DNA of 59,459 bases from Eubacteriales bacterium (GTDB taxonomy: Bacteria; Bacillota; Clostridia; Oscillospirales; CAG-272), in NCBI GenBank assembly GCA_045592305.1, contig JAZNUO010000108.1:1-59459 (forward strand). Direction: 5' to 3'. Both the position numbers and the translations under genes were made by a program. Below are positions 17,566 to 56,566 of this stretch, piece after piece. Every line of letters starts with the position of its first letter. Within the stretch, counting starts at the first letter, position 1. The notes under the pieces were generated by a model. The model did no database searches, was not told the DNA's origin, and was given only the letters and a program-made list of their open reading frames with translations.

Positions 17566-17594
17566 ATTATATCGCAATATATACGGTTTGTCAA
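17566..17594 (-). promoter_or_regulatory. Perfect-consensus sigma-A promoter driving the island operon
   Basis: The minus strand reads TTGACA (17594-17589), a 17-nt spacer, then TATAAT (17571-17566). Confidence 0.65.
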
Positions 17595-27412: not shown

Positions 27413-29238
27413 ATCAGTACAGTATCTTTGATGACTGTTTCGTGGACAGCTTCGCCGGTGGCGGCGGGGCTTCCACGGGAATTGAGATGGCTACGGGTCA
27501 TCCTGTAGACATAGCCATTAACCACGACCAGAGTGCGATCATGATGCACCGACGCAATCATCCATTCACCGAGCATTACATCGAAGATATATGGCAGGTA
27601 GACCCCAAGACTGCGGTGCGCGGACGTCACGTGCGTCTTGCCTGGTTCTCTCCTGACTGTAAGCACTTTTCGAGGGCAAAGGGAGCGGCCTTGGTAAACA
27701 AGAAAATACGCGGCCTTGCCTGGGTGGTTCTTCGTTGGGCGGCAGAAGTCAAGCCCGATGTCATCATGCTGGAGAATGTCCCCGAGTTTGTAACTTGGGG
27801 ACCCGTCCGCAAGGGTAAGCCCGTCAAGAGCAAAGCTGGACAAACCTACCGCAAGTGGTTAAAGCAGTTGCATGAGCTGGGCTATGTCATCGAGACCCGC
27901 AAGATCTGTGCCGCCGATTACGGAGCACCAACCATCCGCACACGCTTCCATCTGATCGCCCGCCGAGACGGTAGACCGATCTGGCCAGAAAGAACACACG
28001 CACCGAGAGATTCTTCCGAAGTCTCAAGCGGTAAATATCTCCCTTGGAGATCTGCGGCGGAAATCATAAACTGGGACTTGCCGTGCCCTTCTATTTTTGA
28101 CACCAAGGAGGACATCAAGAAGCAATACGGCATCACGGCTGTTCGCCCTTTGAAGGATAATACCCTTCGCCGTATTGCCAGAGGGCTGGATAAGTTCGTA
28201 ATCCAAAGCCAGGAGCCTTTCATTGTCCCGATCGGTTACGGTGAGAACAAAGGGCAGAAGCCGAGAGTACATGATTCGAAGGATCCATTGTCCACCGTGG
28301 TAAGTAGCGTTAAACAGTATGTATGCAATCCCGTTATGACACCTTATTTAGGGCAACACAAATTCAATAACGCTGCGCAGGATGCTCGGAACCCTTTGAG
28401 CACAGTAACGTCCGTAGGATCACATGAAATCTTTTCACCGAAACTTGCGCCGTATGTCATGTGCAACAACGCCAACAACGCTCCGCATGAGATGTGTGCC
28501 CCTGTGCCGACCATCACGACAGGCAACAGGAACTTCCTCGTATCCCCCACGCTCATCCAGTACCACACCGAACAGAGCGTAAAGGAAGTGAGAGGTCAGA
28601 AGATTAACGAGCCGATCAGAACGGTTGACGCGGCGAATCGGTACGGATTGAGCGCGGCGTATATGACCGAGTATTACGGCAACGCGCACGATGGCATCGA
28701 GGCCAGAGACCCGATGCATACAATAACCGCCAGAGACCGGGAGGGGGTGACACTTGCCCACCTTGCCCATTTCAAGGGGCAGGATAAGGGGCAATCTCCG
28801 CTGGATCCCCTCATGACGGTGACCGCCCGTGACGGTCAGTTCGCTGATGTGCGGTCGATCCTTGTGAAATGGGATGGCTGTACTGATCTGCATCGTTGGG
28901 GAGAGGTGCGCAAGTTGCTCAATACCTACTGTGACCACAACATAGCAGAGGACGAGGTTCTTCTTCTGAACATCTGCGGCTGTTGGTATTTCATTTCCGA
29001 CATCGGACTGCGAATGCTGACCCCTCGCGAGCTGTATGATGCCATGGGTTTCCCACACGACTACATCATAGACCGAGACATTAACGGAAACCCGATCAGC
29101 CGTTCCGACCAGGTAGCAAGGTGTGGGAACGCCGTGTGCCCTGCGGTCGCGGAAGCTCTGGTAAGGGCCAATCTGCCAGAGCTATGCACAATGAAAATCA
29201 ACACTATGGAACAGCTTCACGATGCTATGACATCATGA
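27409..29238 (+). CDS. DNA (cytosine-5)-methyltransferase, orphan (no adjacent restriction gene)
   Basis: Motif I DSFAGGGGAS. Motif IV FSPDCKHFS (PC). Motif VI ENVPEF. Motif VIII-like PTIRTRFHLIA. Motif IX-like MLTPRELYDAMGFPHDY. Motif X CGNAVCP. The ATG at 27409 makes an ATGA overlap with the upstream gene. Confidence 0.9.
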   Translation: MNQYSIFDDCFVDSFAGGGGASTGIEMATGHPVDIAINHDQSAIMMHRRNHPFTEHYIEDIWQVDPKTAVRGRHVRLAWFSPDCKHFSRAKGAALVNKKIRGLAWVVLRWAAEVKPDVIMLENVPEFVTWGPVRKGKPVKSKAGQTYRKWLKQLHELGYVIETRKICAADYGAPTIRTRFHLIARRDGRPIWPERTHAPRDSSEVSSGKYLPWRSAAEIINWDLPCPSIFDTKEDIKKQYGITAVRPLKDNTLRRIARGLDKFVIQSQEPFIVPIGYGENKGQKPRVHDSKDPLSTVVSSVKQYVCNPVMTPYLGQHKFNNAAQDARNPLSTVTSVGSHEIFSPKLAPYVMCNNANNAPHEMCAPVPTITTGNRNFLVSPTLIQYHTEQSVKEVRGQKINEPIRTVDAANRYGLSAAYMTEYYGNAHDGIEARDPMHTITARDREGVTLAHLAHFKGQDKGQSPLDPLMTVTARDGQFADVRSILVKWDGCTDLHRWGEVRKLLNTYCDHNIAEDEVLLLNICGCWYFISDIGLRMLTPRELYDAMGFPHDYIIDRDINGNPISRSDQVARCGNAVCPAVAEALVRANLPELCTMKINTMEQLHDAMTS

Positions 29239-35775: not shown

Positions 35776-35844
35776 CCGCAAGGCTTGATATATAAAGGGA
35801 CTCGCCGCCCCTATAGCGGCAGAATACAACGGAGGATATACCTC

Positions 35845-41210: not shown

Positions 41211-42081
41211 CAAGAAATATCAGGCTTACTACAGTTACTTTGACGATAAGACCATCACGGGGTCTGTAGGACCCGGTGGAATTCTCAGGCTTACAAATGA
41301 GCATAAACGTCCTGATGGAGTCCCCAGGATTCCAACCAAGCCCAAAGGTACTCCCTCTGTCAATGCCTTTGTCAGCAACGCCAAGCAGAGCCAGAAGACA
41401 ATGGAGCGCCTGCTGGGCGGCCCCGTCCCGAGCTTACCGAGCAAGCCAAGCACCCAGAACAGTCATGTGTTCTCGCATTCGCCCGAGCTTGGCATGAAAA
41501 GGATCAATCAGACGCTCAACCCCATGCTCAATCCTTCCCCGCCTCCCCCATTTCTCCCCGTTATGGGAGAGGATCAGCAGGTCGGCAACCCCTCCATACA
41601 GGTTGACGAGGTAGCGCTGTTCGATCAATACGCTGATTACTACAAGCGTCAAGGCAAGCTCGCCATGGAGGACACTATCGGCAGGGCTGCGGCCTTGACG
41701 GGTGGCTATGGCAATTCCTACGCTGAGGTTGCGGGTAATCAAGTGTATGACTCTCATATCGCCGATTATCTCAAGGTAATCAACGGGACTTCCAAGTCCG
41801 TCGGCAACGGAGCGACCGGCAGTTGGTTGGACGACCTGATTGGAGACCAGACCAGCACAGGGTTCACAGGCACTACCGCACAGGAGGCGCAAGCCTACGT
41901 ACAGTCCCAAGGACTCCCCGCCGATTCCCTCGCAGACCTTATGTCTGATGCCGAGTGGAGACGGCAGAAGGCACTTCATCTCCGCCACGGTGGCGGTGGT
42001 GTTGAAGTGACCGAATACGATACATACGCCGAATATCTCGCCGCTTTCGTGGCCTATGTTACGGAAGTGTACAACGGCTAA
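41203..42081 (+). CDS. Hypothetical virion-module protein (Pro-rich middle)
   Basis: 292 aa. The ATG at 41203 lies 8 nt after GGAGG. It overlaps the upstream gene by 8 nt and ends 13 nt before the giant gene start. Confidence 0.55.
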   Translation: MNDKKYQAYYSYFDDKTITGSVGPGGILRLTNEHKRPDGVPRIPTKPKGTPSVNAFVSNAKQSQKTMERLLGGPVPSLPSKPSTQNSHVFSHSPELGMKRINQTLNPMLNPSPPPPFLPVMGEDQQVGNPSIQVDEVALFDQYADYYKRQGKLAMEDTIGRAAALTGGYGNSYAEVAGNQVYDSHIADYLKVINGTSKSVGNGATGSWLDDLIGDQTSTGFTGTTAQEAQAYVQSQGLPADSLADLMSDAEWRRQKALHLRHGGGGVEVTEYDTYAEYLAAFVAYVTEVYNG

Positions 42082-42094
42082 AGGAGGTAATCTC

Positions 42095-45000
42095 ATGGCA
42101 TTTTCCGAATGGCAAAAGAAAAAGAAACAGCAGGAGCAGGGCGTAGCGCCGTCCTCTCCCACAACCGATCCGCAGGCTAATACCGCTACCCAGCGTCCCT
42201 CGTTTGCAGAATGGCACTCCAAAAAGAAGGAGACCTCGTCTGCACAGGGGTGGCTGGACAGCGTGAACAGTTTCCTCGGCGACGTCAATAATCGTTACAA
42301 GGGCTGGAACAACAGTTCGGACGATTACAACAGCATTTTCAACCGATCCCAAGAACTCCTCCTCGCCGCCGATGGTTGGCGTAAGCAGTACGCTGGGGAT
42401 CCGAATGCGGTCAACGCCATCAATCAGGCTGTGGACTCCCTGGGCAGAGCGCAGGAGTATTCCAAGGCTTACTACGACTTCTATTCCCAGTTTGGGAGCG
42501 CAGACGAGTACGACACATGGACTCGCAAGCAGGACTTTATTCAGCGGTATGTTGAGGATCCTGATATGGCACTCGTTAAGGGTGGGTATGAGCCTGGGTG
42601 GGTCGAAGAAGCGGAATACTCGAAGAAATACAGCAGTCATGCCACTAATCCCGATGGGAAAATGGGTTGGGAAAAGTACCTTTCCGACCAGCAGAAACCC
42701 GAGGAGGAAGAAACTTGGCTTGATGCCATTGGTCGCTACCTTGGCAATGGCGGCATAGTGGATACAACTCTTCCTAATGCAGGAGTAACTCAAACCATAC
42801 ACGACCTTCGCGCCGATGACAGTTGGAAGCATCCGCAAGCCGATTGGAATCAGGAGCAGAAGAACATCTATGGTTCGCTGTATCTGGACTCCCCCTATGA
42901 GGCCGAGCAATTTGCGATCTACACTAACAGAAGGAACAAGGAAATCGCAGAGGCAGATAAAATGCAGAAGATTAGGGAAAGTGCTACCGATAATTTCGGG
43001 ATGGGACTTCTCCACTCTCTCGGGTCTATAGCCACGTCCACCATGGGCATGGCGGATTTTCTTGCCAATCTCGCGGAGGCAAATGCCAGAGGCACCATGA
43101 CTGATGACGGTCAAGTCTCTCCGTTTGAGTATTCACAGGCTGTCCAGGGCGGCATATCCGAGCACTTGAACCAAAAGAGCGGAACCATTGACGAAAAAGT
43201 CCCGATCTTTGGCGGAAAGGGTGCAGGGGACTTGTATAGCCTTGGTATGAGTGTTCTGGAGAGCACCGCTTCCATGGCTTTAGGACCTGGTGGCACCCTC
43301 GTTACATTCTTTGGTTCTGCTGGAGCATCAGCCATGGAGGACGCATTGAACAGAGGTGCAGAGGACTGGCAGGCAGCTCTTTATGGACTTGCCGCAGGTG
43401 TATTTGAAGGTCTCGCTGAGCAGATTGGTATTGACAACCTGTTCAGATTGGGCGGTTCTACTACCGTTAGGGAGACCATCAAGAACATTCTGAAGCAAGC
43501 TGGGGCAGAGGGCGCCGAAGAGGGGCTTACTGCTTTGTTCACTAACATCGCGGATAACGTCATTCTTCAAGAAAAGAGCAACTATTACGAGTTGGTTAGC
43601 CAGTACCAGCTGGAAGGTATGGACTATAACCAGGCCAGAGCAAAAGCGTGGTTGGAGTCTGTTGAGGGTGTTGCATATGACACCATCACCGGCGCCGTAT
43701 CTGGTGCAGTGCATGCGGCTCCTGTTATGACTGGACAGTATGTCAGTAATAGAAACCACACCGCCAACAGAATCTACGGTGATAACGCCGCCGATCTCGT
43801 AGCCGAAGCCCTTGAAATCGACCCGTCCAACACTTATGCCCAGAAATTGAAAAGAAAACTGGACAGCGGCAAGACTCTGTCGGGTGCTGAACTCAACAGA
43901 CTCATCAAGCAGAACGAGAAGCGCATCAAGGACGCCGAAACGGACACCGCTACCGAAGACACCGAAGAAACGCCTCCGTATCCCTCCGAGGCTTCCACGC
44001 CGCAGACGGAGACCGCTTCCCCGACCGAGAGTGCCCCCCCGCACGAAAACGCCTCAGAGAGCGAATACGAGGCTTCTGAGGGCACGACTCCCAAGACCGT
44101 TGCAGACACCACCGCCACCAGGCAGACCGCCCTGAACGAGGCCGCCAAGAAGTATGGTGCGCAGGCGGGTGCCATGGACGCCATCTATAAGGATGGGCAG
44201 GACATGGATTCCTTTGACCGCGGTATCAAGATCGCATTCGACATGGGCCGCGCCGGTGTTTCCCTTTCCTACGCCATGACCAGCGACTCTACTGCCTATC
44301 TTACCGAGAAGCAGAGGGAGTTGGCTCATGGTATTGGCGTTGACTCTTCCAATAGCGAGGCAAGCGAGCGATCCGAAGACAACAAGAAGAAGGCCAATGG
44401 CAAAACGGGGCGCAGGATCGGCACCGTTAAGGGCGAAGGCGTAACCATTAGAGATCTCCGCAAGACCTTCAACGACACACAAGGCGTAGCCTATAAGGTG
44501 CTTACCACTTACGCCGAGGCAACGGGCATTGACATTGTCCTGTTCAAGTCTGAGGCAAACGAGGAGGGCAGATTCGACGGAGCGCAGGGTCGTTTTGTCT
44601 GGAAAGAGGACACGATCTACATTGACATCAACGCAGGTCTTGCCAATGTCAAAAGCGTGGAGGATCTGGCCAAGTACACGATGCTTCGCACGTTTGCCCA
44701 CGAGTTCACTCACTTCATCGAAAAGTGGAACCCCATTCAATACAACGAGTTCCGGCGTGTTGTGTTTGACGCAATGACCGCCCGCGGAGAAAACGTTCAT
44801 GATCTCATCGAGCTTAAACAGGCTCAAACCAGCGGAATGTCCTATGACAAGGCAAGCCGCGAGGTTATGGCCGAGGCTATGGCCGACATTCTCCCTGATT
44901 CGAGTTTTGTGCAGACCCTTGCCGAGAATCACAAGAGCATTTTCAATAAACTCCTTGAGAAACTGAAGGAGTTTGTTGCGGATCTCAAAGCCTATTTCCG

Positions 45001-48000
45001 AACCATCGGCAGCACGTCATCCCGTGAAGCCCGCGCCCTTAAGGAGCAGGTAGGTGAGTCCTTGAAGTATGTGGAGAACATTGTATCCATGTTTGACAGG
45101 ATCGCCGTGGAGGCCGTAGAATCCTACCAGTTGACCGTAGCGACCGACGAGGCTGTTGTAGAGACTCCCATTCCTGTTGAGAAACCCGCACCCGCTAACG
45201 TGCACGATACGCCCAAAAATGCAGATAACCCCGCCGTAAAGCCCAATGTTGCCGCTGATGCAACCACGGATGGTGATAACGGGGACGCATTTTCGATCAC
45301 CGTCAACGCCGAATACGGTACGTTGGAAGTCAAGTTTGACGGGAAGCCCTCCGAGACTGTACGAAACGCACTCAAGGCCCATAAGTTCCGTTGGCATGGC
45401 AAGAAGAGCGTTTGGTACGGAAAGGGCGAGCGGTCTGATATTGTCAGAGTTCTGCGGGATGCGTATAAGGTTGAGGAAGCCACTCCTTCGGTAGCAACAT
45501 CGGATGAGTCCAATAATAAAACCTCCTTGATTGAGAGAGCTTATCAGATAGGCAAAAAGGAAGCCGAGGCACAAAGAACTATTGTTCCCGCAGCCAAGAG
45601 CAAGGACATGAACGATTTGATGAAAGAAGCCGGCAATAATCTTCTCCCTATCATTGAATCGTTTGACAAAGGCGTTGCGGATGAAATCAATCGCCAAACG
45701 GTTTCGGAATTGGATCCTTCTAAAGATTTTGATGCCACTTCCACCTCCCGTAGCCCTTCCAACACGCTTGAATCTATTCGCAACAGGTATCCCGGTAAAT
45801 TCATCATTTACCAAAACGAGGACGGGAGCTACAGCATTCCTGATCTCAATGTTTCCTATCCGTCAAATTGGGATGTATCAAAGGCTATTGATGCTGTAGC
45901 CAAGAGCAGAGACGTTGTGCTTGTACAGGGTGACAAGATTACTGAATATCCCGCCCGTAAGGTTTCCGATTCTGCTGATTCGGACACATCTACGACACAA
46001 AATGGTGCTATAATGGCAGAAGAGGCGGCAGAAGTCGTTGAGACCAGTAATGAGACCGAAGTCGTCAAGGAGGAACGGCCCGTAGCGATTTCCGAGGAAG
46101 ATTTGATCCAGGAGAAAAAGGCGTTCGACAAGAAGTTTGGCGCTATCGACAAGTCCAAATGGATGGTTACGGATTTTGCTCCTCCCAAAAAGGGACAGTT
46201 TATCCTTGATGGATCCCTCGCTATACGAGCTTCCGACCGTGAGCTTGTTGTCGCAAGGGCGGAATATGGAAGAAAACACAATCTTCCCTCTTTCGGCTTT
46301 ATTCCCGAGCATCTGTCCGAGGTTTTGAAAAAGGCAACGACCCTTGTCACCGAGCCGCCTGTTGTTATCGGCGGCCATCCCAAACCCTTGTTCGTTTTTA
46401 CGTTTGACGGAAAATCGCATTTCTGGGACAAAAAGCGTCTTTCGGCTCTGGATGGGAATACTTTCTACGTGGGAGATTTCCAAGGAAAATATAAAATCCT
46501 GAAAGCTGTCGATGAAAACGGAGAGATTGCCGGATTTGTTCTTCCTGTAAATCCGCGTAATCTCACAATCACCGACCCGACGCCTTCTAAACTCAAAACC
46601 TTTTCTAAAAAGAAGCAAGCAACCACAAAAACCACCGAGGAGGTAACCGCAAATGCTGATAACCAAGGATCAGTACTACAGTCTGACAGTGATCGGGAAG
46701 GAGATTCACGACTACTGGATGAAGTCGAAGCCCGAGATGTACATGGAGATGTACGAGCAGGGGACGCTGTGGGAGACCCTGTACAGAGAGGACAAGAGAC
46801 TGGACGATCTGGCCTGCGATCTGATAGCAGTACAGGGGATGTCGGTGGACATGGCGATGGAGGTCGTGAGAGCGCAGATCTACGACGAGATGGCGGATTA
46901 ACCGAAGAATCTTCAGAGCCTGCGACCGACACAAATGTCGGTGACACCGCTGATAGCGCGTCCGCCGAGGTGCTTCATGAGGATGTCGCCGAGGAGATTG
47001 CGCGGAAGTCTACTGAAAAGCCGAAGGGCAGAAACTTCGTGATTGGAGACAGTCTGAATCTTCCCAACGGCGACAAGGCACGATACAAGGCTAATGTAGA
47101 AGCCATTCGACTTGTCAAGCAGTTGGAGTCAGAAGGCCGCTACGCTACGGAAGATGAGCAGGTGATCCTGTCCAAGTATGTAGGCTGGGGTGGTCTTGCG
47201 AACGCCTTTGATTCCCGCAAGGCTGAATGGGCAAGAGAATACGCAGAACTGGCCGAACTCCTGACCAAGGAGGAGTACGAATCTGCCAGAGGATCCACTT
47301 TGAACGCTCACTACACCGATATTTCTGTCATTAAGGCTATGTACGACGGTCTGGCCGGTCTGGGCTTTGACGGCGGTATGATGCTGGAGCCCTCGGCGGG
47401 CGTTGGCAATTTTGTCGGTGCTATGCCCTCTGCCATGAGTGCGAAGGTCAGAGGATGGACAATGGTGGAGCTTGACGGTATCACCGGCTTGATTGCCAAG
47501 TATCTCTATCCCAACGCTAACGTGCAGATCCAAGGATTTGAGAGCACCGTCATTCCTGATAACTTCATGGACGTGGCGATCTCCAATGTTCCTTTTGGAA
47601 ACTACCCCGTAACCGATAAGGCATACCCCAAGAAGATCACAAGTGCGATCCACAACTATTTCTTCGCAAAAGCGTTGGATAAGGTTCGCCCTGGCGGAAT
47701 TGTGATGTTCATCACTTCTGCCTACACCATGAATGCCAGAGAAACCACCGTCCGAAACTACATCATGCAGAAAGCCGACCTTCTCGGTGCCATCCGTCTG
47801 CCTGATTCTGCCTTTAAGAGCAACGCCGGAACCGAAGTTGTCACCGACATTCTGATTCTCAAGAAGCGCCCCCCTCACACTCCCTATGCGGGCGTTGACT
47901 TTCTGGAAGCCCCGTTTACCACTCTTTCCAACGAAAGCTACAACGGTGCTTATATCAACACATACTTTACCGAGCACCCTGAAATGGTGTTGGGTACTCC

Positions 48001-51000
48001 GTCTTTGACGGGAAGCATGTACCGTGGCGATTCTCTTACCTACAAAGCGTTCACCGACCGTGGCAGCCTTGCCGATCAGATCCGCGAGGCGTTTACCCAC
48101 ATCGAGGGCAAGATGGATTACCCGCAGTCCCTTTCCAAGGAGCGGACGAACTTCGCGGTCGAGCGAGCAAGCAAGAAGACCAAGAAGAACGGCTACGAGG
48201 TCAAGGACGGAAAGATTTATCGGAACCAAGACGGTGAACTCGTGGAGCAGCAGATCCCAGAGAAAACCGCCGAACGCATCAAGGGACTGTTGGGTATTCG
48301 TGATGCCCATCGAACTCTTGTGACCTGCCAGCAGCAGGGCGTGAACGATGCCGAGATCAAGAAGGCAAGAGCCGCCCTGAATAAGCTATACGACGATTTC
48401 GTCAAGCGATACGGGTTCATCAATGCCCCCGCCAATCGTAACGCTTTCCGAGATGACCCTGACCGTCACACTCTGATTTCACTTGAGATCTACGATCCTG
48501 ACACTAAAACCGCCAAGAAGTCGGATGTTTTCAGGGTCAATACGATCACACCTAACCGCACGATCACTTCCGCTGCTACCGTATCCGAGGGATTGATTAT
48601 TTCCCGCAACGAGACGGGTTCCGTTGACATCGGTATGATCGCAAAACTCACCGGCAAGAGCGAAGTGGATGTGACACGCGAGCTTTTGGAATCCCGCCTT
48701 GTCTATAAGACCAAGGACGGCAATCTGGAAGCGGCGGAAACCTACCTGTCCGGCAACGTCCGGGCGAAATTGCGCGATGCAGAAGCTATGCTTCCCTTCG
48801 ATGCGGATTATGCCATGAACATCGAGGCCCTGAAAGCCGTTGTTCCCAAGGATGTGGCTTGCGAGGACATTTTTGTAAATCCCGGTACTCCGTGGATCCC
48901 CAACTCTGTGTATTCCGACTTCGCCGCGTATATTCTCGGTGGCAGAAACTATGAGTTTAATCCCGCTGTTATTGTCACCCGCAATCGTGATACCGGCAAC
49001 TTCACGGTCGATGTCAGAGGCAAGTACCTGAAAAACACGGTCGCCAATCTCCAAAAGTGGGGCACTTCGAGACGTACATTCCTGGATATTTTCGATGCTC
49101 TGTTGAACAGTCGCAGCATCGTTGTTAAAAACAAGCTCGATGACGGTTCCTTTGTAGTGGACGCTGATGCTACAGCGGCCGCCAACGAGAAGATGGAGGC
49201 AATTGGGAAGGAGTTCCAGGATTGGCTGTGGCGCGACGAAGCGAGACGCGATGAGTTGACCCGCCTTTATAACGAGACGTTCAACGCCCTTGTTACACCC
49301 AAGTACAACGGCGACAATCTGACCGTGAACGGAGCCAATGCCGCAAAGCCCCTCCGCCCCCATCAGCGCGACGCTGTACAGCGGGTCATTGCTTCCGGCG
49401 GTAATACTTTGCTCGCTCACAAGGTCGGTGCCGGTAAGACTTATGAGATGGCCGCCGCCGCTATGAAACTGAAGCAATTGGGACTTGTCAAAAAGCCCAT
49501 GTTTGCGGTCCCGAAGTCCCTTGTGGCTCAATGGGGCAACGAATTCATGGATTTCTTCCCCACCGCAAAACTCCTGGTTGCTGATGAAAACGATTTCACC
49601 CCCGCTAATCGTAGGGTGTTTATCAACCGAATCGCTAACGGAGACTATGACGCTGTCATTCTCTCCTATGAGCAGTTTGAGAAGATCCCTGTATCTGATG
49701 ACTTCGCAAAAGATCTGTATCAGGAGCAGATCGATAGCGTTATTGCCGCCATCGAGGAGGCAAGAGCCAATCAGGGCGAAAAGGCGTTGTCTATAAAGGA
49801 TCTGGAGAAAAAGCGTAAAACCCTTCAAGCCAAGATCGACAGGCTTACTTCCAAGCCCAAGGACGATGACAACATCCTGTTTGAACAGTTGGGTGTTGAC
49901 AGTCTGTTTGTTGATGAGGCTCATAACTTCAAGAATCTTTTCTACACCACTTCCATGACGAACGTGGCCGGTCTTGGTAATAAGGACGGTGCCGAAAGGG
50001 CATTTGACCTCTATACCAAGGTGCGATACCTGCAACGTCTGAATGGCGGTCGCGGCATTGTGTTCGCCACGGCGACTCCTGTCATGAACAGTATGTCCGA
50101 GATGTACATCATACAGAAGTATCTCCAACCCGACCTGCTGGAGCAGTTGGGCCTTACGTCCTTTGACGCCTGGGCAAAACAGTTTGGCGAGGTAGTCAAC
50201 GGCGTGGAGATCAAGCCCAGCGGCCAGGGATACCGCGTTAAGCAGAGTTTTTCCCGCTTCAAGAATCTGAGTGAGCTTCAACTGCTGTTCCGTAATTTTG
50301 CGGATGTTTTGACCGAAATCCCCGGTTTGAAGATTCCTAAAATGAAGGGCGGCAAGGTAAACGTGGTCGTCTGCGAGCCGAGTGAATTCCAGCAGGACTA
50401 CATGAAACTGTTGGAGGAACGCGCCGAACACATCAAGAATGTGGATCCCAGCGTGGATAACATGCTGAAGATCACGAGCGATGGTCGCAAGATCTCCTAC
50501 ACTCAGCGCATGATCGATCCCTCTCTTCCCTACGAGGAGGGGTGTAAGATTTTCCGCTGTGCGGATAATGTCGTTGCTACCTACAAGGAAAGCGCGAAAA
50601 TCAAGGGGACTCAGCTTATCTTCTGCGACATGGCTACCCCCAAGGGCAAGAGCAAGGCCCAATCCTCTGCTACGGACGAATCCGAAATGGATATGGAGAG
50701 CGCTCACTTGTACGAGGATATCCGAGCCAGACTGATTGAAAAAGGCATTCCCGCAAAGGAAATTGCTTTTATCCATGATGCCGACACGGATTCCAAGAAG
50801 AAAAAACTGTTCGCGGATGTAAACGAAGGGAAAGTCCGTGTTCTGATCGGGTCCACCGCCAAAATGGGCGTAGGCATGAATGCTCAAAAGCGTGTCGTGG
50901 CTATCCACCATCTTGACGCTCCCTGGAGACCCGGAGACGTGGAACAGCGAAACGGTCGCGCCTTCCGCCAAGGTAACATCAACGATGAGGTCGAGTGCTT

Positions 51001-54000
51001 CACTTACGTTACAGAGGGGAGCTTTGATGCCCGTCTTTGGGACATTTTGGAGCGCAAGCAGAATTTCATCGACCAGATCATGAACGGTGAGGATGTAGGC
51101 CGAGAGGCTGAGGACACGGGAGAGGTCACTCTTTCCGCCGCCGAGGTCAAGGCTCTTGCATCCGGCAGTCCATGGATCATGGAGCAGGTGCAGATCGAGA
51201 GCGATATTAAAAAACTGGAAAGCCTGTACCGAGCTCATACGGCATCCATTCGTGAAGCCCGCATCCGACTTTCTCGTAGCATCGGCGATGTCGCCATGTA
51301 TGAAAAATCACTTGCGGCTGTTCGGGAAGATCTGAAAGCACGCAAGGACACCTATTCGGAGGAAAACTTCTCAATCACCATCGGGAACAAGAACTATACG
51401 GTTAAAAAGGATGCTGGCGTTGCCTTTATCAGGGAGGCTGTCGCCAAGGCCAAGGAATCTGATTATGTTACTATTGCGACTTTTGCGGGTTTTGAATTGA
51501 AAGTAATCAAGACTCCCGAGGGCGTGAAGGGCATGATGTTCGGAAAGCAGAGCTATCCTTTCAACGTGTATCCCGGAAACTCCTCCTATCAGATTACAGG
51601 TCTGGTCAATCTTGTATCCGGTCTTGATGCCCGCGTGAATATGTTGGAGAGTGATCTTGCAGCAGCCCGCAACAACATCGCAGAGCAGGAGAAGATCATC
51701 AACACGCCCTTTGCAAAACAAGCAGAGCTTGACAAGAAGAGAGCGCGGTTGAAGGAACTTATGGCTTTGCTGAATCCCAAGGAGGAGCAGCAGATTGCTT
51801 CTATGGATGAGGATACGGTGCAGGAGCAGAGTCGGGCGTATTTGGATGACTTCACTGACAACGTTCCTGTCAAGGTCGACGAGATTGGCGAAAACTATGG
51901 CCTCACCCTCCGAGAGTACTCCTTGCAGGAAATTTCCAACATATTCTACCGTGGCAGAAGCATTGGCGTTGAATACGACATGCTGTTTGACCGTGTATAT
52001 GATTTCTGCAAGAACGCAGGCATTACGTTTGAGGTGCTGCCCACCATCAAGAACGATAAGGGCGAAGTTGTTCCTGGTGTCAGCTCTGGTGATCGCGTTT
52101 CTTTGAATCAGGAATCGTTCAATGAAGAAAATCTTTCAAACGAAAGAAAATCTATGGTAATCCTGCACGAGATGATTCATGCGGCAACAACGTATGCAAT
52201 AAAAGCTTATTTAAGGATAAGGAAGGGGGATGTAACCGTTAAAATGCCGAAAGATATTTATGATAGTTGTGTCCAAATCGTGCGTGTATTCCAATCGATT
52301 AAATCCGACCCCAATTTCGAAAACCAGTATGGAATAGAAAAAATCACGGAAATGATCGCTGAACTGTCAAACCCCGAATTCGTGACTCTGCTGAAGATGT
52401 CTTATCCGAGCATGTGGCATGAATTTTTGGATTTTGTGTGCAGATTGTTCGGCATCAACAAGAGATTTACCAATTACGCCACTTTGAAAAAAGCCGTTGA
52501 CGAAATCCTGTCTCACCCAGATTACGGACTTGCCAGTCGTTATTACGAACAGTTCTGGTTGCATAATCCTCGCTTTTATTTGGATGAGTCGCAGTTCTAC
52601 GATGCCAACGAACAGAATCAGCAGCGTACCAATACCCTTACCGACCGCGAAGTGCTTTCTATGGCGGCAGAACGACTGGAAGGGTATCCCGACCTCACGG
52701 ACGGGGAGCGGGACGCGCTCCGCATCTTCAAGGATCACCTGAACACGCTTCATCTCTTGCAGGAGGAGCGAGCCCAGCAAGGCAGGCTTTACAAGGAGCA
52801 GCAGTTTGGAGCCAAGGTTGACAAGGCCGCCGCCACCGAGACCCTAAACCGTATGCACGTACTGGACGATCGGATCCGAGCGACCAATGATGCGCTTCTC
52901 TCGGTAGAGAATAAAGAAGTTTTGCGTCGGGTGCTGGTCAAGGCGCGCAAGGTCGTTGAGGAGCAGGAGCAACAGCATGGCAAGGAAATCCTTGACCGCT
53001 GGCGTGAACGCACCAAGAACGCCGCCGCTATCAAGAAGTACCGCGAGCGAATCCAGTCGGATGTTAACGATTTGTACAATTGGATCACTAAGCCCGACAA
53101 CAAGGACATCGTAAAGCATGTACCCGATGTACTGAAGAACGCGGTGATCCCCTTCCTAACCTCCATCGACTTTACGAGCAAGCAGCAGTTGAGAGGGGGA
53201 GAGGCTACCAAGGGCGATAAGGAATTTGTCGCAAAATTGGACAGACTCAAGAAGGCCTTGAAAGAGGACATTGATATGGACGGTATGTACTCCGGCTATA
53301 CCGATCTTCCTGTGGACTTCATGGATGAGCTTCAGGAATTCATCGACGCCGTTCAGGAAATTTTGGATGATGGCGCGGATGAGTTCGTCATCAACCGTAT
53401 GACCGGCGACGAACTGAAGGAACTCTCCAAACTTGTGCGGACCCTGAAAAAGTTCATTACTCAGATCAATCGTTTCCACGTCAATGCCATGTTCCAACAC
53501 GTCTATGAAGCTGGAGACAGCACCATCAATGATCTTTCGCACATGGCAAGCGACAACGGTCGGGCTAACGGCGTATCTAACTTTGTTTTCTGGCAACAAC
53601 TGCGGCCCGCATACGCATTCGAGCGATTTGGAAACGGCGGCTTGTCAATTTATGATGGTTTGCGCCGTGGGCAAGCCCAGCTTGCTTTCAACACCCAGAA
53701 GATCGTCAAGTTTTCAAGAGAGGCATATACCGAGAAGGAAGTTAAGGAATGGGAAGATAGTGTCGTGGAAGTCAAACTGGACAGCGGCACCGTTAAAATG
53801 AAGGTGTCTCACATGATGTCCTTCTACGAGCTTTCCAAGCAGCCCGATTCCTTGCGGCATATACTCACGGGCGGTATTCGTGTTGCTACTTTCAAGGACG
53901 GCGAGAAGATAGCCGACCGCGGACATAAGATTTCGGAGGATGATGTCAAAACCATCATTGGGACATTGACTCCCAGGCAGAAGAAGGTTGCGGATGATCT

Positions 54001-56566
54001 CCAATGGTTCATGGCCAAGCAGGGCGGCGCGTGGGGTAACTATGTGTCGGTTGCGCGATTTGGAGAGGAGCAGTTCACGAACGAATTGTATTTCCCCATC
54101 AATTCCGACGGACGTCACCTGAAGTCCATGGCTGACGAGAATCCGAGTGCCGCAAGCCTGTATGCTCTTCTCAATATGAGCTTCACAAAGTCCCGTAACG
54201 AGAAGGCGAACAATCGCATTATCCTCTACAGTATTTTCGATGTATTCTCCAACCATATGGCAAGCATGGCACAGTATAACGCCATGGCTCTTCCTGTGCT
54301 GGATGCTATCAAGTGGTTCAATTACCAGCAAAAAGTAGACGGCGTGAATGGAGAGCGCATCATTAAGGACAGCGTTCGTGAGCAGATGGCGCGTGTGTAT
54401 GGTTCCCCCGAGGAAACGAGACCCGGAAGCGGCCGTCAGGGATATGCAGAGGCATTTATACTGAATATCCTGAAAGCGTTCAACGGGACCGAAGCCCAGG
54501 GCATTCCGTCCGACTCGCTCGGCACGAATACCCTTCGCCGATACAATATGGCACAGATCGCCTATAATACCCGCGTTGTCATCCAACAGCCGTTGGCCAT
54601 TACGAGAGCGGCGCTTTTGATAGACTACAAGTCGATCATTCGAGGTCTCGCCGGTAATACGACTGCACTCAAACAGAATATTGCCGAGATGCAGCAGCAT
54701 AGCGGTATCGCGGCCTGGAAATCCCTCGGCTTCTACGATGTCAACATATCCAGAGGACTGACCGATCTCATTAAGCACAAATCCACCGTTATGGATAAGA
54801 TCGGTGATGTGGGTATGTGGGGGGCTGAAATGGCTGACCTGTTTACTTGGGCTGGCATTTGGAGTGCCTGCAAGTCGGAGGTTATCAAGAAGCAGCGTAT
54901 TACTCCTGACCATGACGGATTCTACGAGGCTGTTACTTCGCTGTTTGAGGAAATCATTTATAAGACGCAGGTAGTCGACAGTATCCTGACTAAAAACGAG
55001 TACATGCGAAGCAAGGGATTCTTTGCAAGAGCAACCAGTTCGTTCATGTCGGAGCCTTGCGCGACCGCAAGTATGGCACTGGATGCCTACTACAAATACG
55101 ACACGGACATTAAAAACGGCATGACTCGCCAGCAGTCGTGGAAGAAGAACGGGAAGCTGATCGGCAGAACCATCTGTGTATATGCCGTGTCCCAAGCCAT
55201 GTTGGCAGCATTCCAGGCTATTTCCGATGCCTTCCGTGACGATGATGAATACGAGAGTTATCTCGAAAAATGGTTGGACGCATTCGGCGGTAACCTTGTG
55301 GATGAGCTTATGCCGCTCAACAAACTTCCGATCCTTTCTGATTTTTACGATCTTGCAAAGGAACTGCTTTCTATCCTCGGCGTGGATACCTACGGAAATC
55401 CTCCGCAATCGGTATTTATGCAATGGTACGACAGTTTAATAAAGGGTGTCAGTATCATCTATGACAAAATCATGGGCGAAGACACAAATTACAAGTGGTA
55501 TGGCGGCATTTACAAACTGCTACAGGCTGTATCTGGCATGACCGGTCTTCCTATGGCGGCGGTTACTCGTGAGATCGCAACCATTTGGAACAATACGGTT
55601 GGCGGTTTCGTACCGAGTCTTAAAATCAAGGATTATGAGCCTTCCGAACTGAACCAAATCAAATTCGCCTATCAGGACGGCTTCCTCACCGCTGAGGAAG
55701 CGCGTGAAGCCCTGCTGGAGAACGGTTTGGCGGACGATGATGATGAGGTTTATTGGATCCTGCAAGGCTGGGATGCGGGGGACAAATATTCCCGCTATGA
55801 CTCTCTTAATCAGGCTATGCTCAACGGTCAGTCTATTGACTCGGCAATGAGCGAGCTTATGGAGCATGGATACACCGAGAAAGAGGTTATTTCTCATGTG
55901 AGGAGTCAGATCGGTACATGGTATAAAGAGGGAGACATAACCAGAGAGCAGGCTGAAAAGTTGCTTTTGAAGTATGGGGAACTCAATACCCAGGAAATCA
56001 AGTCCATGGTCGATAAGTGGAGTTGCAAGATCGTCACCGGCATCAACTACGATGACATCAAGCACGAGTACCTGATCGGCAGTATCACCGAAGCCAGGGC
56101 CATTGAAATGAGACGGCTCTACGGCAATGAGACCCGCGAAAAGGCCGCTGAGACGGTCACCAAGTGGAAGTGCGAGAAGGAGGTCGGCATTGCGTATGAC
56201 GATATTCCCGACCGCATTATCAACGGTACTCTGTCGGCAGATGACGCCAAGGAGCTTTATGTCACATACGGCGGCTATACCAAGCAGGATGCCACCGAAA
56301 AGGTCGTGGCTCTTGACTTCGTCCGCCAGCATCCCGAGTGCAGAGGTATCTCGTATGCCGCTGTTAAGAGCTACAGGCAATACTGCGAAAAGGCAGGAGT
56401 CTCCGCTGAAGTTTTCTACGACGTTTGGAAGAAGCGCACCGAACTCAAGAAGAACGGTACAATGGCATACATCAACCGTCTGAATATTACCAGAATGCAG
56501 AAGGACAGCCTGTATCTGGCTATGGGATGGTCCTATAGCACTATCGCTGAAGCGCCCTGGCGTTAA
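42095..56566 (+). CDS. Giant polyvalent virion protein (4,823 aa): Gly/Ala-rich hydrophobic N-region, zincin module, DarB-like N6-adenine DNA methyltransferase plus SNF2/DEAH helicase, second zincin module, C-terminal region of about 1,100 aa
   Basis: A single stop-free frame. The ATG at 42095 follows AAAGGAGG. Motifs: FAHEFTHF (HExxH, 44699-44713); MTase motif I LEPSAGVGNF (47384-47413) and motif IV DVAISNVPFGNYPV (NVPF at 47585-47596); helicase Walker A GAGKT (49427-49441), DEAH (49913-49924) and motif VI QRNGRAFRQGN; second HExxH VILHEMIHAAT (52166-52180). Confidence 0.85.
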   Translation: MAFSEWQKKKKQQEQGVAPSSPTTDPQANTATQRPSFAEWHSKKKETSSAQGWLDSVNSFLGDVNNRYKGWNNSSDDYNSIFNRSQELLLAADGWRKQYAGDPNAVNAINQAVDSLGRAQEYSKAYYDFYSQFGSADEYDTWTRKQDFIQRYVEDPDMALVKGGYEPGWVEEAEYSKKYSSHATNPDGKMGWEKYLSDQQKPEEEETWLDAIGRYLGNGGIVDTTLPNAGVTQTIHDLRADDSWKHPQADWNQEQKNIYGSLYLDSPYEAEQFAIYTNRRNKEIAEADKMQKIRESATDNFGMGLLHSLGSIATSTMGMADFLANLAEANARGTMTDDGQVSPFEYSQAVQGGISEHLNQKSGTIDEKVPIFGGKGAGDLYSLGMSVLESTASMALGPGGTLVTFFGSAGASAMEDALNRGAEDWQAALYGLAAGVFEGLAEQIGIDNLFRLGGSTTVRETIKNILKQAGAEGAEEGLTALFTNIADNVILQEKSNYYELVSQYQLEGMDYNQARAKAWLESVEGVAYDTITGAVSGAVHAAPVMTGQYVSNRNHTANRIYGDNAADLVAEALEIDPSNTYAQKLKRKLDSGKTLSGAELNRLIKQNEKRIKDAETDTATEDTEETPPYPSEASTPQTETASPTESAPPHENASESEYEASEGTTPKTVADTTATRQTALNEAAKKYGAQAGAMDAIYKDGQDMDSFDRGIKIAFDMGRAGVSLSYAMTSDSTAYLTEKQRELAHGIGVDSSNSEASERSEDNKKKANGKTGRRIGTVKGEGVTIRDLRKTFNDTQGVAYKVLTTYAEATGIDIVLFKSEANEEGRFDGAQGRFVWKEDTIYIDINAGLANVKSVEDLAKYTMLRTFAHEFTHFIEKWNPIQYNEFRRVVFDAMTARGENVHDLIELKQAQTSGMSYDKASREVMAEAMADILPDSSFVQTLAENHKSIFNKLLEKLKEFVADLKAYFRTIGSTSSREARALKEQVGESLKYVENIVSMFDRIAVEAVESYQLTVATDEAVVETPIPVEKPAPANVHDTPKNADNPAVKPNVAADATTDGDNGDAFSITVNAEYGTLEVKFDGKPSETVRNALKAHKFRWHGKKSVWYGKGERSDIVRVLRDAYKVEEATPSVATSDESNNKTSLIERAYQIGKKEAEAQRTIVPAAKSKDMNDLMKEAGNNLLPIIESFDKGVADEINRQTVSELDPSKDFDATSTSRSPSNTLESIRNRYPGKFIIYQNEDGSYSIPDLNVSYPSNWDVSKAIDAVAKSRDVVLVQGDKITEYPARKVSDSADSDTSTTQNGAIMAEEAAEVVETSNETEVVKEERPVAISEEDLIQEKKAFDKKFGAIDKSKWMVTDFAPPKKGQFILDGSLAIRASDRELVVARAEYGRKHNLPSFGFIPEHLSEVLKKATTLVTEPPVVIGGHPKPLFVFTFDGKSHFWDKKRLSALDGNTFYVGDFQGKYKILKAVDENGEIAGFVLPVNPRNLTITDPTPSKLKTFSKKKQATTKTTEEVTANADNQGSVLQSDSDREGDSRLLDEVEARDVHGDVRAGDAVGDPVQRGQETGRSGLRSDSSTGDVGGHGDGGRESADLRRDGGLTEESSEPATDTNVGDTADSASAEVLHEDVAEEIARKSTEKPKGRNFVIGDSLNLPNGDKARYKANVEAIRLVKQLESEGRYATEDEQVILSKYVGWGGLANAFDSRKAEWAREYAELAELLTKEEYESARGSTLNAHYTDISVIKAMYDGLAGLGFDGGMMLEPSAGVGNFVGAMPSAMSAKVRGWTMVELDGITGLIAKYLYPNANVQIQGFESTVIPDNFMDVAISNVPFGNYPVTDKAYPKKITSAIHNYFFAKALDKVRPGGIVMFITSAYTMNARETTVRNYIMQKADLLGAIRLPDSAFKSNAGTEVVTDILILKKRPPHTPYAGVDFLEAPFTTLSNESYNGAYINTYFTEHPEMVLGTPSLTGSMYRGDSLTYKAFTDRGSLADQIREAFTHIEGKMDYPQSLSKERTNFAVERASKKTKKNGYEVKDGKIYRNQDGELVEQQIPEKTAERIKGLLGIRDAHRTLVTCQQQGVNDAEIKKARAALNKLYDDFVKRYGFINAPANRNAFRDDPDRHTLISLEIYDPDTKTAKKSDVFRVNTITPNRTITSAATVSEGLIISRNETGSVDIGMIAKLTGKSEVDVTRELLESRLVYKTKDGNLEAAETYLSGNVRAKLRDAEAMLPFDADYAMNIEALKAVVPKDVACEDIFVNPGTPWIPNSVYSDFAAYILGGRNYEFNPAVIVTRNRDTGNFTVDVRGKYLKNTVANLQKWGTSRRTFLDIFDALLNSRSIVVKNKLDDGSFVVDADATAAANEKMEAIGKEFQDWLWRDEARRDELTRLYNETFNALVTPKYNGDNLTVNGANAAKPLRPHQRDAVQRVIASGGNTLLAHKVGAGKTYEMAAAAMKLKQLGLVKKPMFAVPKSLVAQWGNEFMDFFPTAKLLVADENDFTPANRRVFINRIANGDYDAVILSYEQFEKIPVSDDFAKDLYQEQIDSVIAAIEEARANQGEKALSIKDLEKKRKTLQAKIDRLTSKPKDDDNILFEQLGVDSLFVDEAHNFKNLFYTTSMTNVAGLGNKDGAERAFDLYTKVRYLQRLNGGRGIVFATATPVMNSMSEMYIIQKYLQPDLLEQLGLTSFDAWAKQFGEVVNGVEIKPSGQGYRVKQSFSRFKNLSELQLLFRNFADVLTEIPGLKIPKMKGGKVNVVVCEPSEFQQDYMKLLEERAEHIKNVDPSVDNMLKITSDGRKISYTQRMIDPSLPYEEGCKIFRCADNVVATYKESAKIKGTQLIFCDMATPKGKSKAQSSATDESEMDMESAHLYEDIRARLIEKGIPAKEIAFIHDADTDSKKKKLFADVNEGKVRVLIGSTAKMGVGMNAQKRVVAIHHLDAPWRPGDVEQRNGRAFRQGNINDEVECFTYVTEGSFDARLWDILERKQNFIDQIMNGEDVGREAEDTGEVTLSAAEVKALASGSPWIMEQVQIESDIKKLESLYRAHTASIREARIRLSRSIGDVAMYEKSLAAVREDLKARKDTYSEENFSITIGNKNYTVKKDAGVAFIREAVAKAKESDYVTIATFAGFELKVIKTPEGVKGMMFGKQSYPFNVYPGNSSYQITGLVNLVSGLDARVNMLESDLAAARNNIAEQEKIINTPFAKQAELDKKRARLKELMALLNPKEEQQIASMDEDTVQEQSRAYLDDFTDNVPVKVDEIGENYGLTLREYSLQEISNIFYRGRSIGVEYDMLFDRVYDFCKNAGITFEVLPTIKNDKGEVVPGVSSGDRVSLNQESFNEENLSNERKSMVILHEMIHAATTYAIKAYLRIRKGDVTVKMPKDIYDSCVQIVRVFQSIKSDPNFENQYGIEKITEMIAELSNPEFVTLLKMSYPSMWHEFLDFVCRLFGINKRFTNYATLKKAVDEILSHPDYGLASRYYEQFWLHNPRFYLDESQFYDANEQNQQRTNTLTDREVLSMAAERLEGYPDLTDGERDALRIFKDHLNTLHLLQEERAQQGRLYKEQQFGAKVDKAAATETLNRMHVLDDRIRATNDALLSVENKEVLRRVLVKARKVVEEQEQQHGKEILDRWRERTKNAAAIKKYRERIQSDVNDLYNWITKPDNKDIVKHVPDVLKNAVIPFLTSIDFTSKQQLRGGEATKGDKEFVAKLDRLKKALKEDIDMDGMYSGYTDLPVDFMDELQEFIDAVQEILDDGADEFVINRMTGDELKELSKLVRTLKKFITQINRFHVNAMFQHVYEAGDSTINDLSHMASDNGRANGVSNFVFWQQLRPAYAFERFGNGGLSIYDGLRRGQAQLAFNTQKIVKFSREAYTEKEVKEWEDSVVEVKLDSGTVKMKVSHMMSFYELSKQPDSLRHILTGGIRVATFKDGEKIADRGHKISEDDVKTIIGTLTPRQKKVADDLQWFMAKQGGAWGNYVSVARFGEEQFTNELYFPINSDGRHLKSMADENPSAASLYALLNMSFTKSRNEKANNRIILYSIFDVFSNHMASMAQYNAMALPVLDAIKWFNYQQKVDGVNGERIIKDSVREQMARVYGSPEETRPGSGRQGYAEAFILNILKAFNGTEAQGIPSDSLGTNTLRRYNMAQIAYNTRVVIQQPLAITRAALLIDYKSIIRGLAGNTTALKQNIAEMQQHSGIAAWKSLGFYDVNISRGLTDLIKHKSTVMDKIGDVGMWGAEMADLFTWAGIWSACKSEVIKKQRITPDHDGFYEAVTSLFEEIIYKTQVVDSILTKNEYMRSKGFFARATSSFMSEPCATASMALDAYYKYDTDIKNGMTRQQSWKKNGKLIGRTICVYAVSQAMLAAFQAISDAFRDDDEYESYLEKWLDAFGGNLVDELMPLNKLPILSDFYDLAKELLSILGVDTYGNPPQSVFMQWYDSLIKGVSIIYDKIMGEDTNYKWYGGIYKLLQAVSGMTGLPMAAVTREIATIWNNTVGGFVPSLKIKDYEPSELNQIKFAYQDGFLTAEEAREALLENGLADDDDEVYWILQGWDAGDKYSRYDSLNQAMLNGQSIDSAMSELMEHGYTEKEVISHVRSQIGTWYKEGDITREQAEKLLLKYGELNTQEIKSMVDKWSCKIVTGINYDDIKHEYLIGSITEARAIEMRRLYGNETREKAAETVTKWKCEKEVGIAYDDIPDRIINGTLSADDAKELYVTYGGYTKQDATEKVVALDFVRQHPECRGISYAAVKSYRQYCEKAGVSAEVFYDVWKKRTELKKNGTMAYINRLNITRMQKDSLYLAMGWSYSTIAEAPWR
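44400..44900 (+). other. Domain: zincin-like metallopeptidase module 1 of the polyvalent protein
   Basis: The HExxH motif in TMLRTFAHEFTHFIEKW is preceded by a beta-rich segment (IDIVLFKSE...GRFVWKEDTIYIDINAG). Boundaries are approximate. Confidence 0.55.
46653..46901 (+). CDS. Embedded +1-frame gene inside the giant gene: small helical protein, TnpV-like by pattern
   Basis: Strong SD GAGGAGGT (46637-46644) lies 8 nt before the ATG. An in-frame TAA (46644-46646) precedes it, so the ORF is self-contained. The 82 codons have G/C-ending codon usage like genuine genes of this phage. MLITKDQYYSLTVIGKEIHDYWMKSKPEMYMEMYEQGTLWETL...GMSVDMAMEVVRAQIYDEMAD. Confidence 0.45.
   Translation: MLITKDQYYSLTVIGKEIHDYWMKSKPEMYMEMYEQGTLWETLYREDKRLDDLACDLIAVQGMSVDMAMEVVRAQIYDEMAD
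47030..47900 (+). other. Domain: N6-adenine DNA methyltransferase (gamma-class order, motif I before motif IV)
   Basis: NFVIGDS...KYVGWGGLANAFD lead-in, LEPSAGVGNF, NVPFG. This layout is what I recall for P1 DarB-like and ICE MTase-helicase fusion proteins. Confidence 0.75.
49350..51000 (+). other. Domain: SNF2/DEAH-box helicase (both RecA lobes)
   Basis: RPHQRDAV, LLAHKVGAGKTYEM, FVDEAHNFKN, ATATPVMNS, STAKMGVGMNAQ, HLDAPWRPGDVEQRNGRAFRQGN. Confidence 0.8.
52090..52480 (+). other. Domain: second zincin-like module, in a locally AT-rich patch
   Basis: KSMVILHEMIHAATTYAIKAY. Hand count gives about 33% GC for 52201-52260 and about 42% for 52261-52320, against mid-50s or higher around it. Confidence 0.55.

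Follow-up and report, generated by a model that had tools for sequence, protein, structure and literature searches.

Within a prophage of a Eubacteriales bacterium (Clostridia; Oscillospirales; CAG-272 in the GTDB lineage), one gene encodes a protein of 4,823 residues, which raises the question of what kind of protein this is and what it might do for a phage. The prophage lies on contig JAZNUO010000108.1 of GenBank assembly GCA_045592305.1, of which positions 1 to 59,459 were analyzed (“the window”). We consider it likely that the gene encodes a phage-type polyvalent protein, in which a fixed carrier is combined with exchangeable cargo, and for which packaging, ejection, and protection of DNA are proposed. 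The domains of the protein, its relatives, and the gene order of a short-tailed phage together point to a polyvalent protein that is probably packaged into the virion and ejected from it. Such proteins form a class that is already described (Iyer et al., 2017; PMC5512222). Residue numbers are counted throughout from the first in-frame ATG at 42056; 13 is to be subtracted for numbering from the likely start at 42095.

A DarB-type methylase-helicase in one uninterrupted frame

The centre of the protein is occupied by a DarB-like N6-adenine methylase fused to an SNF2 helicase, an assignment proposed in an earlier note, which had been made from the letters and translations alone, and on which PHROG, Pfam, and BLASTP searches agree. 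The profile phrog_10089 (“DarB-like antirestriction”) matches aa 1517-3264 with 1,611 bits, and Pfam finds SNF2-rel, ResIII, Helicase_C, and N6_Mtase in the central part, so that both the methylase and the SNF2 assignment are supported by profile searches. In BLASTP comparison with DarB of phage P1, three conserved blocks, comprising the methylase and both helicase lobes, are aligned with E-values of 5e-32, 3e-24, and 1e-15. The catalytic motifs are intact: LEPSAG.G.F and NVPFG are identical to P1 DarB, and GAGKT, DEAHN, and QRNGRxxRxG are preserved as well. The GxGU motif VGWGGL is found upstream of the methylase, a location that matches the one given for LPD36 by Iyer et al. (PMC5512222). 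The DarB module has 151 phage matches at 36-41% identity, including the giant proteins of LASTA, PEp14, Pavtok, and VvAW1. The only solved structures to match the central part were chromatin remodelers, and these only in their generic SNF2 ATPase lobe.

According to the listing of open reading frames (ORFs) and the translation, the gene lies within a single ORF (42056..56566, forward strand) of 4,836 codons from the first ATG, without an internal stop. The start at 42095, which yields 4,823 residues, is the likelier one, since the ribosome-binding site AAAGGAGG is located 7 nt ahead of it and since the preceding ORF on the same strand ends at 42081, 14 nt before this ATG; the gene model given in the earlier note is thus favored. 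Likewise, every motif quoted there was recovered at its place in the translation: FAHEFTHF (HExxH at aa 882), LEPSAGVGNF (1777), NVPFG (1844), GAGKT (2458), DEAHN (2620), and the second HExxH (3371). The share of the gene in the visible prophage, which had been put at a quarter, needs correction: the gene makes up 24% of the window and ~35% of the visible prophage (from the integrase at 18084 to the end of the window). Long ORFs also occur on the reverse strand inside the gene (48479-51238, 53714-55423, and 47129-48310, with 919, 569, and 393 aa), all of them in the codon-aligned antisense frame. TTA, CTA, and TCA appear only 28 times among the 4,823 sense codons, and because of this rarity the antisense ORFs are regarded as shadow ORFs.

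Conserved ends around a variable centre

The part of the protein preceding the DarB module is composed of a polar leader, the conserved helical module N1, a polar linker, a first zincin-like module, and a middle segment that is rarely shared with relatives (Table 1). The N-terminal region had been described as Gly/Ala-rich and hydrophobic, in the manner of tape-measure or ejection proteins. It is indeed rich in these residues, with 27.8% Gly and Ala at aa 330-480 versus ~15% elsewhere, but its hydrophobicity is not of the kind expected for membranes: the best 19-residue Kyte-Doolittle mean in this stretch is 1.12, and membrane helices are unsupported by hydropathy. The likeness to tape measures could not be upheld, either, as no tape-measure family is matched in Pfam, PHROGs, or NCBIfam. 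Besides the linker behind N1, further polar stretches poor in hydrophobic residues lie between modules at aa 742-810, 1296-1335, and 1497-1660. In the middle segment, a small domain with the sequence FSITVNAEYGTLEVKFDGKPSETVRNALKAHKFRWHGKKSVWYG (aa 1065-1121; 45248-45418) has a match to a PHROG that carries the annotation primase (3.7e-5). This domain, which is also fused to primases elsewhere, probably binds DNA or protein. For aa 14-1516 as well as for aa 3516-4836, no relative of solved structure was detected by phmmer or profile search.

Both HExxH modules look like zincins, as the earlier note had proposed, and each of the two (HExxH at aa 882 and 3371) has conserved companion motifs. In the first module, E936 downstream of HExxH is nearly invariant in the alignment of homologues, and the predicted structure shows a beta-sheet followed by the HExxH helix (predicted local distance difference test, pLDDT, 80-90). 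The best fold match in the PDB, obtained with Foldseek from a model of the N-terminal part, is anthrax lethal factor 4dv8, with only E 0.11 (prob 0.87). The same structure was used to put the HExxH domain of the virion RNA polymerase (vRNAP) of phage N4 among the zincins (Iyer et al., 2017; PMC5512222). The second module, which directly follows the DarB module, contains ILHEMIHAAT (HExxH at 52166-52180) and EMIAELSNP (52358-52375), both of which are conserved in its few homologues.

The remainder of the protein, termed the C module, had been set aside as about 1,100 further residues without a recognizable motif. The unrecognized C-terminal part actually comprises ~1,320 aa, and rather than being an uncharacterized orphan, it is the best-conserved module of the family, fixed at the C-terminus. 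Its invariant core motif, WGNYVSVARFG...YFPINSDG, is encoded at 54032-54112. At the extreme C-terminus, aa 4540-4770 (55673-56365) contain four or five repeats of ~40 aa with the pattern G-x-I-T-x-E-E-A; they are the least conserved part of the module and give a faint SHOCT-like hint in Pfam (E 0.21). An AlphaFold2 model of aa 3516-4600 (pLDDT 68.7, predicted template modeling score 0.58) consists mostly of helices, apart from a small beta core at the invariant motif. In BFVD, this fold is found in C-terminal chunks of large polyvalent proteins of uncultured phages (53 matches at E<=1e-3, best 1e-39, template modeling scores of 0.4-0.56). A Pfam search of nine overlapping segments of the protein at E<=5 returned nothing credible beyond methylase and helicase. 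N1 and the C module are unmatched in Pfam and NCBIfam, the only PHROG being phrog_22978, of unknown function, and no description of them was found in the accessible part of Iyer et al. (2017; PMC5512222).

The borders of the modules were drawn by mapping 120 metagenomic homologues, and then the 139 best cluster representatives, onto the protein. The C module has 89 word-indexed homologues at 50-70% identity; among 1.84 billion cluster representatives (50%-identity clusters) searched with phmmer, 3,540 match it at E<=1e-3 and 2,692 at E<=1e-30. These relatives are proteins of 2,000-4,860 aa. Within the best 139 representatives, the median length is 3,245 aa, and 31 proteins reach at least 4,000 aa, 9 at least 4,500 aa, and the longest 4,860 aa. 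As the C module is followed by a median of 15 residues in this set, it is always C-terminal. N1 is present in 84 of the 139, the first zincin in 104, and DarB in only 18 (~13%); the full order N1-zincin-DarB-C recurs in 11, which measure 4,400-4,860 aa. In other relatives, the centre is filled by ART-PolyVal, MuF_C, PBECR1/3, LPD1, LPD3, or LPD23, and further cargo includes a Strawberry-notch-type (Sno) helicase, a C5 methylase, RadC, and MutS_I. The pattern of the family is one of conserved ends, with N1 and the first zincin usually on one side and the C module on the other, around a variable centre.

The hosts of 137 loci in species-representative genomes are overwhelmingly gut Clostridia known from metagenome-assembled genomes, with Oscillospiraceae, Faecousia, Acutalibacteraceae, and Lachnospiraceae among them. 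Four close relatives (L008, L033, L038, L059) are located on contigs of ~3-46 kb that were binned into Bacteroidaceae, Treponema, E. coli, and Desulfovibrio, and which are most likely mis-binned phage contigs, so that the C module could be used as a marker for contigs of this kind. A look-up of the exact protein sequence yielded no record. Megablast of the giant gene against phage genomes gave no match, and tblastn of the N-terminal and C-terminal thirds against 50,697 phage records gave only three fragmentary matches, none of which belongs to a cultured phage whose bacterial host is known.

Gene order, proposed role, and rival explanations

The giant protein is encoded among virion genes, as had been noticed before: genes for terminase, P22-like portal, Prp protease, capsid, and fibre surround it on the same strand. 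In the window, and likewise in relatives with as little as 23-30% identity (L001, L005-L007), terminase is followed by P22 portal, Prp, scaffold, capsid, a few virion genes (three or four in the window), the giant gene, fibre or lysis genes, and integrase, and no genes for tube, sheath, or tape measure were found in the window or in these relatives. On complete-looking contigs of ~43-47 kb, the giant gene of the relatives is directly followed by fibre, lysis, and integrase genes. This is the gene order of a temperate, short-tailed, P22-like phage, with the giant gene at the position of an ejection protein. The earlier note had placed the gene where tail and tape-measure genes would be, which has to be revised, given that a long-tail module is missing.

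Table 1. Features of the giant gene, its protein, and the surrounding window (nucleotide positions refer to the window)
Feature	Position	Strand	Residues	Remarks
Giant gene	42095..56566	+	4,823 aa from likely start	ORF listing and translation
Ribosome-binding site AAAGGAGG	42080..42087	+		7 nt before ATG at 42095; read from sequence
Polar leader			aa 14-189	hydropathy/composition
N1, conserved helical Gly/Ala-rich module	42623..43945	+	aa 190-630	core aa 390-565
Polar linker, few hydrophobic residues	43862..44164	+	aa 603-703	
First zincin-like module	44123..45205	+	aa 690-1050	H882-E883-xx-H886 at 44699-44713
Rarely shared middle segment	45206..46603	+	aa 1051-1516	
DarB-like module	46604..51847	+	aa 1517-3264	
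GxGU motif VGWGGL	47180-47197	+		upstream of methylase
N6-adenine methylase	47297-47872	+		motif I 47384-47413, NVPFG 47585-47599
SNF2 helicase	49349-51094	+		GAGKT 49427, DEAHN 49913, QRNGRAFRQG 50945
Second zincin-like module	51848..52600	+	aa 3265-3515	
C module, ~1,320 aa	52601..56563	+	aa 3516-4836	mostly helical
Fic/DOC protein	414-1328			left flank
VWA protein	2043-2726	-		left flank
Protein kinase	2716-4095	-		left flank
PP2C	4086-5138	-		left flank
Ig-like surface protein	7898-16762	-	2,953 aa	left flank
Prophage integrase	18084..19115	-		marks left end of prophage
Free C5-cytosine methylase	27400..29238	+	612 aa	same prophage
Large terminase	32147-33577	+		
P22-like portal	33587-35452	+		
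Prp cysteine protease	35461-35775	+		
Probable scaffold	35785-36861	+		
Major capsid protein	36909-38123	+		
Small ORF	38512-38886	+		after capsid gene
“Internal virion protein”	38899-40641	+	580 aa	
Two ORFs without assigned function	last ends 42081	+		between internal virion protein and giant gene
Fibre gene	56644..59454	+		BppU_N anchor, C-terminal GDSL/SGNH esterase; runs off window

Some of the neighboring genes deserve a remark of their own. In L005-L007, which are distant relatives, the Prp gene likewise lies between portal and scaffold, a hint that the head proteins of this type of phage are processed in a Prp-dependent manner. Of 79 related genome loci, 32 have the BppU_N anchor part of the fibre gene downstream of their giant gene, whereas the esterase part is not shared; this suggests that the esterase is a swapped receptor-binding or receptor-modifying domain. 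The free C5 methylase listed in the earlier note is real. It is matched by Pfam in two stretches with a long middle region between them, and may be a multispecific phage methylase. The left 18 kb of the window differ in GC content (0.40-0.49) from the prophage from the integrase onward (0.49-0.58), and positions 1-18000 look like a part of the host or another island that is separate from the prophage.

Starting from the uninterrupted ORF, the identified domains with their intact catalytic motifs, the carrier-cargo pattern, and the virion-gene context, we infer every step of the following mechanism. The giant protein would be made late and packaged into the capsid of a short-tailed temperate phage. 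Its conserved ends might serve for entry into the capsid and for exit via portal and tail at infection, for which the N4 virion RNA polymerase is the model. The centre would travel as cargo, i.e., as a complete N6-adenine methylase of the DarB type together with the SNF2 translocase to which it is fused. Upon co-delivery, the DarB module could be loaded onto the incoming genome and shield this DNA in cis from restriction, in the way that P1 DarB counters type I systems; head packaging and protection in cis from type I restriction are presumed from the precedents of P1, JC1, and Bcep22. The zincins and long polar linkers might then allow the protein to be cut into separate effectors, or a zincin might attack targets in the host, following the proposal of Iyer et al. 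Packaging, ejection, and self-cleavage of the giant protein are hence suggested by analogy.

Several observations weigh against this reading or against parts of it. The “TP” motif capping the helix before the methylase core is “TD” in the giant protein (HYTD, aa 1752-1755, 47309-47320; YYTP in P1 DarB). Neither HExxH module is matched by MPTase-PolyVal, the Pfam zincin model for polyvalent proteins, and a SprT-like Pfam match of the second module is only sub-threshold (E 0.023). The structural models of the N-terminal part (pLDDT 65.3) and of the C module are of moderate confidence, and Foldseek found nothing below E 0.9 for the C-module model in the PDB. Among the cultured phages of INPHARED, neither the C module nor N1 was found at the level of tblastn. 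The link of N1 to N4 is weak: in comparison with seven N4-like vRNAP N-termini, hhalign gave E 3e-4 (prob 41%, 116 columns), and the score of the hidden Markov model was 9.5 versus a maximum of 9.4 for shuffled sequences. Two identities were considered for the C module. One, the PLxRFG domain (profile-profile comparison of 209 C-module with 16 PLxRFG sequences, E 0.21), to which a local “VARFG” string is the sole likeness, was rejected; the other, the encapsidation region of the N4 vRNAP, was not detected (hhalign E 0.13 with seven N4-like C-termini, E 0.17 with a single sequence). As no relation to the C-terminal regions of N4 or PLxRFG proteins is detectable, it is by its position that the C module suggests a role in encapsidation.

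A different emphasis would make the giant protein an essential structural piece, namely an internal core or ejection conduit that crosses the Gram-positive wall and membrane, with the enzymes as secondary add-ons. The position of the gene is that of P22-type ejection proteins, it is kept in the structural module of every relative, and no other large candidate for an ejection protein is evident between capsid and fibre genes; conserved ends with a variable centre would fit such a role, which the authors of the phi24B study propose for gp47. However, no segment of the protein is hydrophobic enough for a membrane helix (the maximum 19-residue Kyte-Doolittle mean is 1.48), Pfam reveals no peptidoglycan hydrolase domain, and comparison with the PDB showed no resemblance in fold to ejection or core proteins of solved structure. 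As an explanation in its own right, the conduit appears somewhat doubtful to us, but it is compatible with a polyvalent protein and is held as a possible additional role. It is improbable that the protein is not packaged at all and acts as a late methylase-helicase, by which progeny DNA is modified ahead of packaging, or that it serves the lysogen in defence or exclusion. Methylation before packaging would protect the DNA, too, and two NCBIfam models are weakly and partially matched, DISARM DrmD by the helicase C-domain and MADS MAD2 by the methylase. With 27-60 bits, these remain far below cut-offs of 610-1,200, so that only generic domains are in common with DrmD and MAD2. Moreover, the gene lies within the late virion operon and adjoins the fibre gene, P1 DarB as well as homologous giant proteins belong to the virion, and the free C5 methylase already serves the route before packaging.

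We give hardly any credence to a tape measure or another protein of a long tail, for which only the large size, the location after the head genes, and the Gly/Ala-rich helical N-terminal region speak. No family of tape-measure, tube, sheath, or baseplate-hub proteins is matched in Pfam, PHROGs, or NCBIfam, the portal is P22-like, and the contigs of the relatives pass from the giant gene directly to fibre, lysis, and integrase. Equally far-fetched is a mis-assembly or fusion of several ordinary genes. Relative L001 (ENA ERZ15610166 NODE_860) is annotated with two genes (2,991 and 1,581 aa) instead of one, but the split (9960-9980) falls at a scaffold gap of ten N and is, on this account, an assembly artefact itself. 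The GC content is even across the giant gene (0.49-0.52), and 4,823 stop-free codons would have a probability of ~1e-102 given the base composition. Since at least 11 cluster representatives, with 4,400-4,860 aa, independently show the same order of N1, zincin, DarB, and C module, the ORF is not a fusion created by assembly. An origin from a conjugative element was rejected, as were the tape measure and the assembly artefact.

Comparison with known systems

The polyvalent proteins described by Iyer et al. (2017; PMC5512222) share several properties with the giant protein: they are very large, consist of many domains, and are encoded among packaging and virion genes. The putative zincin-like peptidase and the triad of LPD36-like region, adenine methylase, and SNF2 helicase correspond to the two commonest hub elements of the class, and the ART-PolyVal, MuF_C, PBECR, and LPD domains of the class are exchanged among the relatives of the giant protein. 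A difference is that the giant protein itself matches no Pfam model for LPD domains or MPTase-PolyVal. DarB of P1, an antirestriction protein of 2,255 aa, is a component of the phage head (PMC5512222) and has homologous methylase and SNF2 blocks with equivalents of Walker A, DExH, and motif VI. However, the DarB module constitutes only ~36% of the giant protein, which is twice as long and belongs to a short-tailed prophage of a Gram-positive-type host, whereas P1 is a myovirus. P1 DarB requires the partners DarA, Hdf, DdrA, and Ulx; none of them appeared among the PHROG matches of the neighboring genes scanned, although no dedicated search was made.

The layout of an N-terminal region, a central enzyme, and a C-terminal region is also that of the N4 virion RNA polymerase gp50 (3,500 aa), the N-terminal region of which is needed for injection, and the C-terminal zincin and downstream domain of which are needed for encapsidation (PMC5512222). 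In gp50, however, the cargo is an RNA polymerase. Another polyvalent protein of a short-tailed temperate phage is gp47 (2,811 aa) of the Stx phage phi24B; it has been detected in virions, and a role as an ejection protein was proposed for it (bioRxiv 10.64898/2026.04.10.717836). It differs by its domains, LPD5, LPD1, LPD38, and MuF-C, and by the lack of a DarB module. Similarity between the two is borderline and limited to the N1 region (BLASTP E 0.002; profile score 10.9, reached by 1 of 500 shuffles), and a C module was not detected in gp47.

Similar in design are giant proteins of podophages from Gram-negative hosts, i.e., Bcep22 gp75, JC1 gp69, the “PLxRFG protein” of LASTA (4,433 aa), and Pavtok gp27, which belong to the same size class and have a central DarB module with ~37% identity. 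In these proteins, too, an HExxH module stands just after DarB and is followed by a long C-terminal module, and each is encoded towards the end of the virion module of a temperate phage with a short tail, where the gene occupies between a fifth and a third of the genome. JC1 gp69 (4,515 aa, DarB-like) was identified in purified virions by mass spectrometry (PMC9144972), and Pavtok gp27 (5,007 aa), a putative ejection protein, has been cited as the longest known phage protein (PMC8402733). Apart from the host phylum, the LASTA-type giants differ by their C-terminal module, PLxRFG/“tail-700” (NF032893, LPD39): NF032893 matches LASTA with 677 bits, whereas the giant protein yields no match at a threshold as lenient as E<=10. 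Judged by sequence profiles, the C module thus appears to belong to a different family than the end module of the Gram-negative giants. BLAST detected no similarity to these giants outside the DarB module. The N1 profile matches the giant protein of the Klebsiella phage LASTA at aa 485-676 with 31 bits, versus a maximum of 5-10 in 500 local shuffles that preserve composition, which constitutes a previously unrecorded link between the Clostridia and the Gram-negative groups outside DarB.

To call the giant gene the strongest candidate for new biology in the window, as the earlier note did, is an overstatement, considering that DarB-like giants of podophages are published and that metagenomes contain this exact architecture repeatedly. 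Publications already cover the class as well as its DarB cargo, its zincin hubs, its giant size, and the function proposed for it, and the architecture is present repeatedly in public data; no new mechanism is revealed, and an anti-restriction role is what has been published for DarB. The moderately interesting part is the chassis of conserved end modules, which is abundant in relatives. Tentatively, N1 and the C module might be an undescribed protein-delivery chassis of short-tailed phages from gut Clostridia, in which the C module anchors the protein in the capsid and N1 leads it out, so that any cargo between them would be injected along with the DNA. N1 would then be distantly homologous to the N-termini of the giant DarB proteins of Gram-negative phages, and perhaps to that of the N4 vRNAP. 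If this were true, a single ancient injection module would underlie giant ejected proteins across podophages, and the family would provide a natural, reprogrammable means of delivering proteins into Gram-positive cells.

Giant polyvalent proteins of the DarB type are known from a few podophages of Gram-negative hosts; prophages of uncultured gut Clostridia hold a very large counterpart to them, and such a phage devotes about a third of a genome of ~43-47 kb to one gene. With two conserved ends, for which there is neither a solved structure nor a curated family, and with swappable cargo, the family offers a good system for studying the packaging and ejection of half-megadalton proteins. The C module, moreover, is a reliable marker of this type of phage, by which mis-binned phage contigs can be told from their supposed hosts. 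The overall design, as read from the sequences, is the one that the Gram-negative giants display as well: an N1-like region, the cargo, an HExxH module, and a long C-terminal module.

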